A stretch of 64,000 nucleotides of DNA from Candidatus Bathyarchaeota archaeon. Lineage in GTDB: Archaea; Thermoproteota; Bathyarchaeia; 40CM-2-53-6; RBG-13-38-9. This document shows positions 41,710 through 54,847 of this stretch, piece by piece (within the stretch, counting starts at the first letter, position 1; each line of letters begins with the position of its first letter). The stretch spans positions 832,001 through 896,000 of the forward strand of contig CAWECG010000003.1 of the NCBI GenBank assembly GCA_963807605.1. The letters run 5' to 3'. The notes under the pieces were generated by a model. That model did no database searches. It saw only the letters and a program-made list of their open reading frames with translations, and had not been told where the DNA came from. A program made the translations under genes and the position numbers.

Positions 41710-42507
41710 TCACATTCTGCCTCTTCCAATGGCCAAGTTCTTGCCTGTCCCGCCCCGTCTGTGTTTAATCACTTCTGCTATTATGCTTGTGGCAATCTCC
41801 GCTGGCGTCTCAGCACCTATATCGAGTCCGATAGGTGCGTAGACCCGTTTAAGGCTATCTTCAGGTATACCCTCTTTCATCAACGTGTTAAATGCCATCT
41901 CTACCCTGTTCTTGCTTCCGACCATTCCTATGTAAGTTGCTTCTGAATTGATGACTTCTCGTAGGGCAGGTTCATCGTACTGATGCCTAGTCACTATAAC
42001 TATGTACGTCTGTGGAGTGATTTTAAGCCCGGCAACTCCTGCATCTACGGGTTTGGCTACTACGGTTTCGGCATCCGGGAACTCTTCTTTCTTGGCAAAG
42101 GGGTCAAGCACAACGACTTTAAAGTCTACCAATTTACCAAGAGTCGATAACGCTATTGCGATGTGACCGCTTCCGATGATTAAAAACACTGGTTTTGGCT
42201 GGAGTACCTCGATAGATAATTCAAGCTTACCTCCACATCTCATGCCCACCCCACCTTTCTCTTCCTCCTCCAAGGCATAGTCTACGATTCGAGACTTTGC
42301 TTCCTTTAGTGCTTCGAGAGCCGATGTCACTACTGCTGCTTCAACACAACCGCCACCGATGGTTCCGTAGATCGTTTGATCGTTCATGATAATCATCTTT
42401 GTGCCAACGCCCCTCGGAGTAGAACCCTCAGCTCTGATTATGCTAGCGACAGCAAACGTCTCTCCACTTTGCAGAAGTTCTGTAATCTTTTGGTATATGT
42501 CCAGCAA
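41710..42507 (-). CDS. xdhC: XdhC/CoxI molybdenum cofactor insertion chaperone
   Basis: GSTPR..G.KM, GTIGGGC.E, GM.CGG, GSGHIA, YIGMVGS, APIGLDIGAETPAEIA. Confidence 0.92.
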   Translation of the reverse strand: MLDIYQKITELLQSGETFAVASIIRAEGSTPRGVGTKMIIMNDQTIYGTIGGGCVEAAVVTSALEALKEAKSRIVDYALEEEEKGGVGMRCGGKLELSIEVLQPKPVFLIIGSGHIAIALSTLGKLVDFKVVVLDPFAKKEEFPDAETVVAKPVDAGVAGLKITPQTYIVIVTRHQYDEPALREVINSEATYIGMVGSKNRVEMAFNTLMKEGIPEDSLKRVYAPIGLDIGAETPAEIATSIIAEVIKHRRGGTGKNLAIGRGRM

Positions 42508-42658: not shown

Positions 42659-43536
42659 ATGCGTTTGACGACAGAACTTTTGAGATTGGATAATCCAGAT
42701 GGAGCTATCGAGCGTATCGTCAGCTTTCTCAGAGACTATGTTAAGGGGGCCTCGGCTGATGGTTTTGTTATTGGTATGTCTGGAGGACTCGACTCAAGCG
42801 TTACAGCTGCTCTCTGTTCAAGAGCTCTCAACGACCGTAACAAGATCCTTGGTTTGTCTATGGCTGAGGAGGAAACCTACAATGAAAAGAATATAGCTGA
42901 TGCCGAACGTGTAGCACACATCTTTAACATACAATTCAAGAAGGTCGACATAACTTCAATTATCAAAGACTTTCATAAGAACATGAAACTCTTCGATCCG
43001 AGGGATCGAATTGCTAATGGTAATGTTAAAGCGAGGATCCGCGCGGTAACTCTCTTCTACCACTCTAATGTTCTCAATCGCCTCGTCATCGGAACTACCG
43101 ATAAGAGTGAAATGATGCTCGGATAGGATAAGTCCTTCATGAATTTATCCCCGAAGATTTCACAAAGTTTGGCGACGGGGCATGCGACATAGAGCCTCTG
43201 GCAGATCTCTTTAAGACAACCGTTAGACAACTTGCAACCACCTTGGGAGTTCCTACAGAAATAGTAGCGAAGCGGCCATCACCCGATCTTTGGCCGGATC
43301 AACAAGCAAGCCAAGAACTAGGAGCGGATTATGACGTACTTGATCTTGTACTATGGGGAATTGAGCACTGGTGGTCGATAGACAAGATCGCAAGTGAACT
43401 ACAGCTCCCCGAGAAGTTTGTTAAGAATGTAGTGGAGAAGTGGAAATTAGCGGAGCATAAGAGGCGCACACCACTTATCCCCAAACTCTTCTTTAGAACT
43501 GTGGGTCATGATTTCCGTCTACCCTACATGCCTTAG
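42659..43536 (+). CDS. nadE: NAD+ synthetase, intron-containing: join(42659..43124,43157..43536), 281 aa
   Basis: SGGLDSS, GNVKARIR, GTTDKSEMMLG | YFTKFGDGACDI, PLADLFKT, PSPDLW, EHKR; the two ORF halves are out of frame until the 32-nt intron is removed. Confidence 0.92.
43125..43156 (+). other. 32-nt archaeal BHB-type intron in nadE mRNA
   Basis: Central helix TCGG/CCGA, 3-nt bulges ATA and AGA, intron stem GGATAAGT/ATTTATCC; splicing yields GGA-TAT-TTC. Confidence 0.88.
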
Positions 43537-43674: not shown

Positions 43675-44502
43675 ATGAAGCAAATCAAGGTAGGCCTTGC
43701 CCAGACTTCCATCAAAAATGGTGATAAGTCTCACAACCTCCAAGTAATGAGGAGGACTTTAGACGAGGCCAGAAAGAAAGAAGCTAACTTACTTATCTTT
43801 CCTGAGTTATCTCTCACAGGATATGTTTGTCGCGACTTTTTCTATGAGCTCGCGGAGACTATTGATGGACCCTCTATAAAACTTGTATGCCAATTTACAA
43901 GAGAGAATGGATTGACAACGATTTTTGGAATGCCTTTGGAAGAGAATGTCAAAGGCGTAATTTACAATTCGTCGGTCATGATCGATGAAGACGGTGATGT
44001 TGTTAGCTACAACAAGTTGTATTTGCCTACCCACTCGGTCTTCGATGAAAAGAGATATTTCCGCTCTGGCAACGAGACAAAATGTTTTCAAACCAAGAAA
44101 TGCAGGATTGGGCTGACAATTTGTTATGATGTTTATTTCCCAGAGATATACCGGATCCTCGCACTTGAGGGAGCTGAGCTCGTGACTTGCATCTCTGCAT
44201 CTCCTTCTACACGTCAAGAATATTTCCAAACTTTGACTAAAGCTAGGGCAATTGAGAATGGAGTTTTTCTTGCTTTCGTCAATCGTGTTGGAATTGAGGA
44301 TGGACTACAGTTTTGGGGAGGAAGCAACGTCGTGAGCCCAAACGGTGACATTCTGGCGAAGGCCCGATATTATGAAGAGGACTTAACCTTCGTTACATTA
44401 GACTTGGAGGATCTAAGGAGAGTTAGACCGTTTGTCCCAACCATTAAGGACCTCAGAATGGAGATCTTGGACAGATTGGTACTGCGAGCCCACGAGATAT
44501 GA
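43675..44502 (+). CDS. Carbon-nitrogen hydrolase (nitrilase superfamily); candidate glutaminase partner of NadE
   Basis: FPELSLTGY, YNKLYLP, GLTICYD (E-K-C triad), ARAIENG, VNRVG. Confidence 0.9.
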   Translation: MKQIKVGLAQTSIKNGDKSHNLQVMRRTLDEARKKEANLLIFPELSLTGYVCRDFFYELAETIDGPSIKLVCQFTRENGLTTIFGMPLEENVKGVIYNSSVMIDEDGDVVSYNKLYLPTHSVFDEKRYFRSGNETKCFQTKKCRIGLTICYDVYFPEIYRILALEGAELVTCISASPSTRQEYFQTLTKARAIENGVFLAFVNRVGIEDGLQFWGGSNVVSPNGDILAKARYYEEDLTFVTLDLEDLRRVRPFVPTIKDLRMEILDRLVLRAHEI

Positions 44503-54708: not shown

Positions 54709-54730
54709 GCATTCGGGATAGTTCCTCAGG

Positions 54731-54847
54731 CGCCGGGGAGGGGACTTGAACCCCTGCTCTCCTAGTGGAGAACCGGATGTGTTGACTTTTCGTTCTCGAG
54801 TCCGGCGCATTGGCCCACTTTATGTTTTGCCACTCTGCCACCCCGGC
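54731..54847 (-). tRNA. tRNA-Ser(CGA) with two introns (D-loop ~54813-54828; canonical 37/38 at 54779-54794)
   Basis: Acceptor stem GCCGGGG/CCCCGGC, discriminator G, T-arm AGGGG-TTCAAGT-CCCCT, long variable arm, anticodon stem CCGGA/TCCGG around CT-CGA-GA; CCA not encoded. Confidence 0.88.

Follow-up and report, generated by a model that had tools for sequence, protein, structure and literature searches.

How can a gene whose reading frame is broken within its most conserved motif still give rise to a complete enzyme? This is the question raised by nadE, the NAD synthetase gene of a soil archaeon of the class Bathyarchaeia, in the 64-kb stretch of DNA analysed here (positions 832001-896000 of contig C3 of the host genome, which is labelled G000 and comprises 2.65 Mb in 5 contigs, 94% complete; the stretch is hereafter called the window, and its own numbering is used for the gene). 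nadE occupies the + strand from an ATG at 42659 to a stop codon at 43534-43536, is broken by a TAG at 43124-43126 and then continues in another frame. A first-pass annotation, made from the letters of the window, had interpreted the break as an intron of bulge-helix-bulge (BHB) type in the coding sequence, and the coordinates and motif letters that it gave for this interval are all correct. The comparative tests that we have run bear this proposal out: positions 43125-43156 are very probably an archaeal endonuclease-type intron of the BHB class in the nadE pre-mRNA, and synthesis of the enzyme would almost certainly require that this mRNA first be cut and its ends rejoined.

The protein halves are the first line of evidence. 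Translated from 42659, a start position common to the aligned relatives, to 43123, exon 1 gives 155 aa that contain the PP-loop motif SGGLDSS, end in KSEMMLG and match positions 2-136 of the Pfam profile PF02540 (NAD_synthase, E 6e-37). The frame of exon 2 opens with FTKFGDGACD and matches positions 138-242 of the same profile (E 3e-29). Thus, exactly one residue is absent at the exon junction. When the 32 nt are taken out the junction reads GGA-TAT-TTC, encoding G-Y-F-T-K-F-G-D-G, and the halves join (155+1+125) into a protein of 281 aa that spans the whole NAD_synthase profile and carries both the PP-loop SGGxDS and the motif G-Y-x-T-K-x-G-D; translation and profile split therefore agree with the restored protein that had been claimed. 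The predicted junction of the spliced mRNA is ...GCTCGGAT joined to ATTTCACAAAG (with a longer 5' flank, GATGCTCGGAT joined to ATTTCACAAAG), and its position is ambiguous by one base, since A43125 equals A43157 and the cut can equally be drawn one base rightward.

The second line of evidence comes from the relatives. The same break, between profile positions 136 and 138, is found in 8 of the 12 nadE-bearing species, belonging to five genera, of one Bathyarchaeia family; these eight genome loci were identified by a protein-profile search that made no use of the intron sequence, and none of the 105 species genomes of the order has such a break outside the carrier family. A DNA pattern search added 24 further public contigs bearing the insert, 23 from metagenomes and one mis-binned. 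Across these 32 loci the insert measures 30, 31, 32 or 34 nt and always interrupts the same codon, and excision by the bulge rule yields G-Y-[F/Y]-T-K and a full-length open frame in every one of them. The spliced product aligns gap-free to 24 intron-less homologues, which read G-[Y/F]-x-T-[K/L] ungapped at this place (Tyr in 23 and Phe in one; Lys in 22). Among the carrier genomes the exon proteins are 59-74% identical, nonsynonymous divergence (dN) between genera is 0.13-0.34 with synonymous sites saturated, and dN/dS, where computable, is 0.06-0.27 and alike in both exons; as judged from these comparisons, both exons are under purifying selection. In the tree the carriers form one clade (support 100/99), whose sister group consists of intron-less orthologues from the neighbouring family. 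In a collection of 5.8 billion proteins the best full-length match to exon 1 was only about 50% identical and none exceeded about 51%, so that no intron-less allele of the carrier clade is on record, nor any full-length open reading frame that a spliced transcript might have yielded, and a protein-based locus search of genome contigs with exon 1 returned nothing.

The first DNA pattern was too loose for the 596 Gb searched, giving about 120 matches that were mostly due to chance and that contained nadE only at loci L061, L088 and L117; the matches in Methanothrix and other archaea were chance ones, with coding on the opposite strand. L117 (JBARPA010000406.1, 2673 bp) is an intron-bearing bathyarchaeal nadE contig filed in a metagenome-assembled genome of Candidatus Zixiibacteriota, a placement that is most likely a binning error. 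Two nadE paralogues of related genomes have in-frame stops of their own, a TAG (G006:C18:1428-2186) and a TGA (G085:C26:2425-3126), and are otherwise full-length profile matches.

The third line of evidence is the conservation of the RNA fold, measured on 21 distinct sequences. In the RNAalifold consensus the central helix keeps its 4 bp and the bulge its 3 nt, the inner stem has 7 bp, and 99.6% of the cells are paired on this structure. The central helix is paired in all 21 sequences, its first pair being UA in 18 and UG in 3 and its other pairs invariant. In the inner stem three pairs show compensatory double changes, with A-U, G-C, U-A and C-G all occurring at one position; a covariation score as high as that observed was reached in none of 500 shuffles, and a shift of the partners by one to three columns makes the pairing collapse. 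The AUA of the 5' bulge is invariant in all loci. The 5' strand of the central helix is coding, and the Leu-Gly dipeptide there is always encoded by CTC GGA in the carriers, many synonymous codons being used in the intron-less homologues. Both the shared position of the insert and the covariation of its stem are thus in keeping with the annotated intron.

In the host sequence (Table 1), the unconstrained minimum free energy (MFE) fold of 43095-43175 contains UCGG/CCGA, the unpaired AUA, the 8-bp hairpin (in DNA letters, GGATAAGT at 43126-43133 and ATTTATCC at 43143-43150) and an outer helix GUGAAAU/AUUUCAC (GTGAAA at 43107-43112 and TTTCAC at 43158-43163). Its energy is -20.9 kcal/mol (z = -2.56), and 2 of 200 shuffles folded equally well; taken alone, this fold of one sequence beats chance by a modest margin only and would not convince, and it is the comparative evidence that carries the case. 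Of the structure drawn in the first-pass annotation, the central helix, the AUA bulge and the intron stem are upheld by both the MFE and the consensus folds, but the 3' site is not the clean 3-nt bulge that had been drawn: its AGA lies opposite 5-6 unpaired bases (43113/14-43118), and the MFE fold pairs A43157 with U43113, placing the site in an internal loop of 2-3 nt by 5-6 nt. The exon-exon stem GTGAAA/TTTCAC is likewise present in the host genome but is not conserved. It is missing from the consensus, occurs mostly as GUGAA/UUCAC at an offset in per-sequence folds, and is weak or absent in the subgroup reading Y-Y-T-K-Y, with a different distal pairing instead in two genera. The motif is therefore a relaxed BHB, similar to the bulge-helix-loop (BHL) or HBh' type, which falls under the relaxed but not the strict hBHBh' definition, from which it departs at the 3' site; of the two flanking helices in that definition, the intron helix h' is present with compensatory changes, and the exon-exon helix h is offset in the host and not in the consensus.

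Table 1. Features of the interrupted nadE gene (window positions) and further interrupted genes of the host genome (contig positions in G000).
Feature	Position	Strand	Description
nadE exon 1	42659-43124	+	ATG to T 43124, with which the split Tyr codon begins
Offset exon-exon helix, 5' strand	43107-43113	+	GUGAAA(U), pairs with 43157/58-43163; 6-7 bp in the host
Central 4-bp helix, 5' strand	43119-43122	+	UCGG (codons CTC GGA), pairs with 43151-43154; MFE fold
5' three-nt bulge AUA	43123-43125	+	Unpaired in MFE and consensus folds; predicted cut after the second base, between 43124 and 43125
Predicted intron	43125-43156	+	32 nt, phase 1, within the Tyr codon of G-Y-F-T-K; frame and motif restored on removal
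Intron hairpin	43126-43150	+	8-bp stem GGAUAAGU/AUUUAUCC (43126-43133 with 43143-43150), 9-nt loop; MFE fold
Central helix, 3' strand	43151-43154	+	CCGA
3' splice-site loop AGA	43155-43157	+	AAA in some relatives; predicted cut between 43156 and 43157
nadE exon 2	43157-43536	+	Rest of the Tyr codon (AT), 125 further codons, stop codon 43534-43536
infB (aIF5B)	G000:C1:147990-148068	-	37-nt insert, GGCC aua ... GGCU aug; excision restores VLGH/VDHGKT (VLGH/VDHGKTTLLD)
rnhB (RNase HII)	G000:C4:128214-128245	+	26 nt, UGGG aga ... CCCA aga; restores DEAGR/GPLLGP
EF-2	G000:C1 about 210680-210720	+	31 nt, UCCG aaa ... CGGA aua; restores QIRN/IGIIAHVDHGKTT
argF	G000:C1 about 88000-88050	-	31 nt, CCGA aca ... 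UCGG aga; restores STRT/RASFE

Which enzymes would remove such an intron? The host genome has two splicing endonuclease (EndA) genes, alpha (93 bits; contig C4, about 303338-303904, minus strand) and beta (57 bits; contig C3, about 661461-661988), and encodes the ligase RtcB (575 bits). The alpha protein matches the catalytic repeat, can be aligned over its whole length with two known alpha subunits, 2cv8 of Sulfolobus tokodaii and 3p1z of Aeropyrum pernix, and has the Crenarchaea-specific loop, including the specificity-loop lysine, and the beta protein matches the structural repeat and beta-subunit models; the predicted host enzyme is thus of the crenarchaeal (alpha-beta)2 type. In Aeropyrum this loop enables the endonuclease to cleave both non-canonical and BHL motifs (PMC3241643). 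Enzymes of the (alpha-beta)2 class splice the cbf5 mRNA, whose BHBs are unconventional, with cuts that fall between the second and third bases of the bulge (PMC2738675). In nadE, the transcript would fold so that UCGG at the end of exon 1 pairs with CCGA at the end of the intron, the helix being flanked by the AUA bulge, the 8-bp intron hairpin and the AGA loop at the 3' site. The heterotetrameric (alpha-beta)2 endonuclease would then cut after the second base of each bulge, and RtcB would ligate the exons, creating the TAT (Tyr) codon and an mRNA for the 281-aa NAD synthetase, whereas unspliced RNA would give only the 155-aa fragment ending at the TAG. Cleavage, ligation and the exact register of the cuts are what we infer from the fold, the conservation and the enzymes encoded.

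Several observations weigh against this interpretation: (i) The motif departs from the canonical hBHBh', since the 3' cut would fall in an asymmetric internal loop and the outer helix is offset and non-conserved, so that cleavage at the 3' site is predicted from the wide range of motifs that (alpha-beta)2 enzymes are known to accept. (ii) The metagenome loci were chosen by intron pattern, and that pattern fixed the boundary bases, whose invariance in those loci is therefore partly ascertainment; only the eight genome loci are an unbiased sample. (iii) The sole metatranscriptome run that shares words with the locus (5%) gave no cover of it and gives no verdict on splicing either way.

The departure of the 3' site from the canonical bulge could also mean that the insert is removed from the RNA by something other than EndA and RtcB, such as another nuclease or a self-cleaving structure. 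We consider this very unlikely. With 30-34 nt the inserts are far too small for group I or group II self-splicing, and RNA annotation of the window with default ARAGORN and Rfam gave no match, including no Rfam ribozyme. The parts that have been conserved, moreover, are exactly those that EndA recognises, namely a helix of 4 bp with its 3-nt bulge and the stem that flanks them, and the same geometry is found in four other genes of the host (see below), in infB with a canonical hBHBh'.

A different possibility is that the RNA is not spliced at all and that the ribosome skips the insert by translational bypassing, taking off at the GGA codon before the UAG and the hairpin. The context does suggest this: in all loci GGA-UAG is followed directly by a stable hairpin, an arrangement that resembles the take-off site of phage T4 gene 60. 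A matching GGA landing codon is nevertheless available only in the minority of loci with the variant CCGGAG, most having CCGAAG or CCGAAA. In addition, a ribosome that resumed in the frame of exon 2 would place Asp or Asn (codons GAT, GAC or AAC) where the intron-less homologues have Tyr or, once, Phe, whereas splicing always rebuilds TAT or TAC. Bypassing also leaves unexplained the conserved 4-bp exon-intron helix and the frozen CTC GGA codons, and we know of no report of it in Archaea. Endonuclease-type splicing accounts for these features, and bypassing seems to us highly improbable.

It might be argued instead that nadE is a pseudogene or a dispensable remnant in which a disruptive insertion has become fixed. 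The DNA does contain an in-frame TAG and a frameshift, and gene callers split nadE into two open reading frames; the first-pass annotation had anticipated that automated pipelines would take it for a pseudogene. Such decay is hardly credible in a gene whose halves are both open and under purifying selection across lineages with saturated synonymous sites, and whose insert varies in length while the excised product always remains in frame. nadE is also the sole copy in the host genome by profile search (the genome being 94% complete), and the probable partner gene downstream is intact. blastn-short found no second copy of the intron in the host genome either, and there is thus no sign of recent transposition.

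The adjacency of the two open reading frames on one strand could further suggest a two-piece enzyme, its halves translated separately, or a variant in which a programmed ribosomal frameshift passes through the insert, both of them extremely improbable. The break lies inside a codon of the most conserved motif, and the exon-2 frame has no ATG, GTG or TTG until 43243, 28 codons past the FTKFGDG motif, so that exon 2 cannot be expressed alone with its motif; nor is there a frameshift path, since all three frames stop within the insert (TAG 43124-43126, TGA 43140-43142, TAA 43129-43131). An assembly or sequencing artefact, for which nothing speaks beyond the unusual look of the locus, has practically no chance of being the explanation, as the insert is present in 31 other assemblies and is spanned by an independent contig of 4.6 kb from a soil run (about 98% identical) and by a marsh contig (about 94%), one of which has A>G at 43147, turning a U-A pair into U-G with pairing kept, whereas in the other 1 nt, at 43144, is deleted from the hairpin's 3' arm.

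Is nadE, then, a special case? The first-pass annotation had speculated that its intron couples NAD synthesis to RNA-processing capacity. We found no support for this idea: at least four unrelated genes of the same genome (infB, rnhB, EF-2 and argF; Table 1) have similar introns, which speaks for a feature general to the lineage and against NAD-specific regulation. Each of these inserts has a 4-bp helix, 3-nt bulges beginning with A and an inner hairpin, and that of infB is a canonical hBHBh' with a long exon-exon helix. All five introns, that of nadE included, lie within the most conserved motif of the protein concerned. The cbf5 gene of this genome appears uninterrupted. A homology-free scan for BHB motifs that join open frames gave 1425 hits at first, a number that fell to 319 with a coding-score filter and to 21 under stricter rules; it recovered nadE, infB and rnhB but missed EF-2 and argF because of their imperfect stems, and it is noisy and not a census. 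It gave false positives at gene boundaries, for instance between the genes of an ABC permease and its ATPase, and an erroneous call of 62 nt in the threonyl-tRNA synthetase (ThrRS) gene.

On balance, and with reservations, we favour the idea that nadE is one of at least five or six genes of this organism with endonuclease-dependent mRNA introns (together with those for EF-2, aIF5B, RNase HII, ArgF and probably a PRMT-like methyltransferase), and that the tRNA-splicing enzymes act as a general mRNA-splicing system in Bathyarchaeia. If this is true, these enzymes would be needed to express core translation and metabolic genes, and we would be dealing with a prokaryotic mRNA-splicing regime rather than with a one-gene curiosity.

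Two further loci of the host genome deserve mention. The PRMT-like methyltransferase gene (L187 and L188; G000:C4:671168-672146, minus strand), to which the scan pointed as well, contains a candidate 34-nt intron in the insert at 671713-671752, its exon 1 matching positions 1-82 of 145 of a methyltransferase profile and its exon 2 giving a weak PRMT_C match. The ThrRS editing domain (G000:C4 about 162230-162340, upstream of L192) begins RVLFIHSSHFEYEVK and has no in-frame ATG, GTG or TTG after the upstream stop, and a different frame has an ATG 49 nt upstream; either the gene starts at an unusual codon or its start codon is immediately followed by a further small intron.

The closest known parallel is the intron of the cbf5 pre-mRNA in the Desulfurococcales and Sulfolobales of the Crenarchaeota (Watanabe 2002, Yoshinari 2006, Yokobori 2009 = PMC2738675), which is likewise short, lies in a protein-coding sequence and has a relaxed or unconventional BHB. 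In both cases the cuts fall between bulge bases 2 and 3 (predicted cuts for nadE), the intron is in phase 1 and splits the codon for a key residue within a conserved motif (catalytic Asp for cbf5, GYFTK Tyr for nadE), the distribution is restricted to a clade and the hosts have heterotetrameric (alpha-beta)2 EndA with the Crenarchaea-specific loop. In spite of these similarities, the two differ in that cbf5 codes for an RNA-modifying enzyme and nadE for one of central metabolism, in the class Bathyarchaeia, and in that cbf5 splicing was demonstrated by cDNA and in vitro cleavage whereas that of nadE is predicted. With the BHB and BHL introns of archaeal pre-tRNAs (Marck and Grosjean 2003; Hirata 2011 = PMC3241643) the nadE intron shares the 4-bp helix, the 3-nt bulge, the intron hairpin and, at 30-34 nt, the size, and presumably the enzymes; in contrast to them, its substrate is an mRNA with no tRNA body to aid recognition, and the outer helix is replaced by the offset, non-conserved exon-exon pairing.

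Beyond the cbf5 and tRNA introns, HVO_1309 of Haloferax volcanii is another archaeal mRNA that serves as substrate of the tRNA splicing endonuclease, as predicted for nadE. Its splice site, which Schwarz is said to have described in 2020, reportedly lies in the 5' untranslated region; in nadE, by contrast, the coding frame itself would depend on the excision. The HVO_1309 mRNA is cleaved by an alpha2 enzyme, and the spliced product is seen in RNA-seq (reviewed in PMC10485636). The eukaryotic HAC1/XBP1 system is similar in being a protein-only cut-and-ligate splicing that changes the reading frame of an mRNA, with RtcB as the ligase in metazoa, but there the endonuclease is IRE1 and the process is stress-regulated, whereas no regulation is indicated for nadE.

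A review of 2023 counts "at least two" archaeal mRNAs, those of cbf5 and HVO_1309, as endonuclease substrates and expects more (PMC10485636). In the literature searched, splicing of archaeal coding sequences is established only for cbf5, and our literature search found no paper that describes an intron in nadE. The conserved nadE intron would extend such introns beyond RNA-modification genes and the classical Crenarchaeota, to the central metabolism of an abundant soil and sediment lineage. Since gene callers split nadE, metabolic reconstructions of the carrier Bathyarchaeia would wrongly show NAD synthesis as broken at its last step. With the further interrupted genes of the host, nadE also provides a defined set of substrates with which to study how (alpha-beta)2 enzymes recognise relaxed motifs outside a tRNA body.

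Finally, some features around the gene complete the picture. An intact carbon-nitrogen hydrolase gene (43675-44502, + strand; full-length Pfam CN_hydrolase match, E 7e-60) lies 138 nt 3' of nadE and probably encodes the glutaminase partner of NadE, and upstream of nadE a gene of the XdhC family occupies 41710-42507 on the opposite (-) strand. In its intron mode, ARAGORN found only 31 tRNA genes in the host genome, of which the majority are interrupted, in many cases at non-canonical positions. Within the window this mode also detected, at 54729-54847 (- strand), a gene resembling tRNA-Asn(GUU) that contains an insert of 39 nt and whose acceptor and T arms are good but whose D arm is poor. The default ARAGORN and Rfam searches had missed this gene, which probably encodes a tRNA whose introns are non-canonical or multiple.
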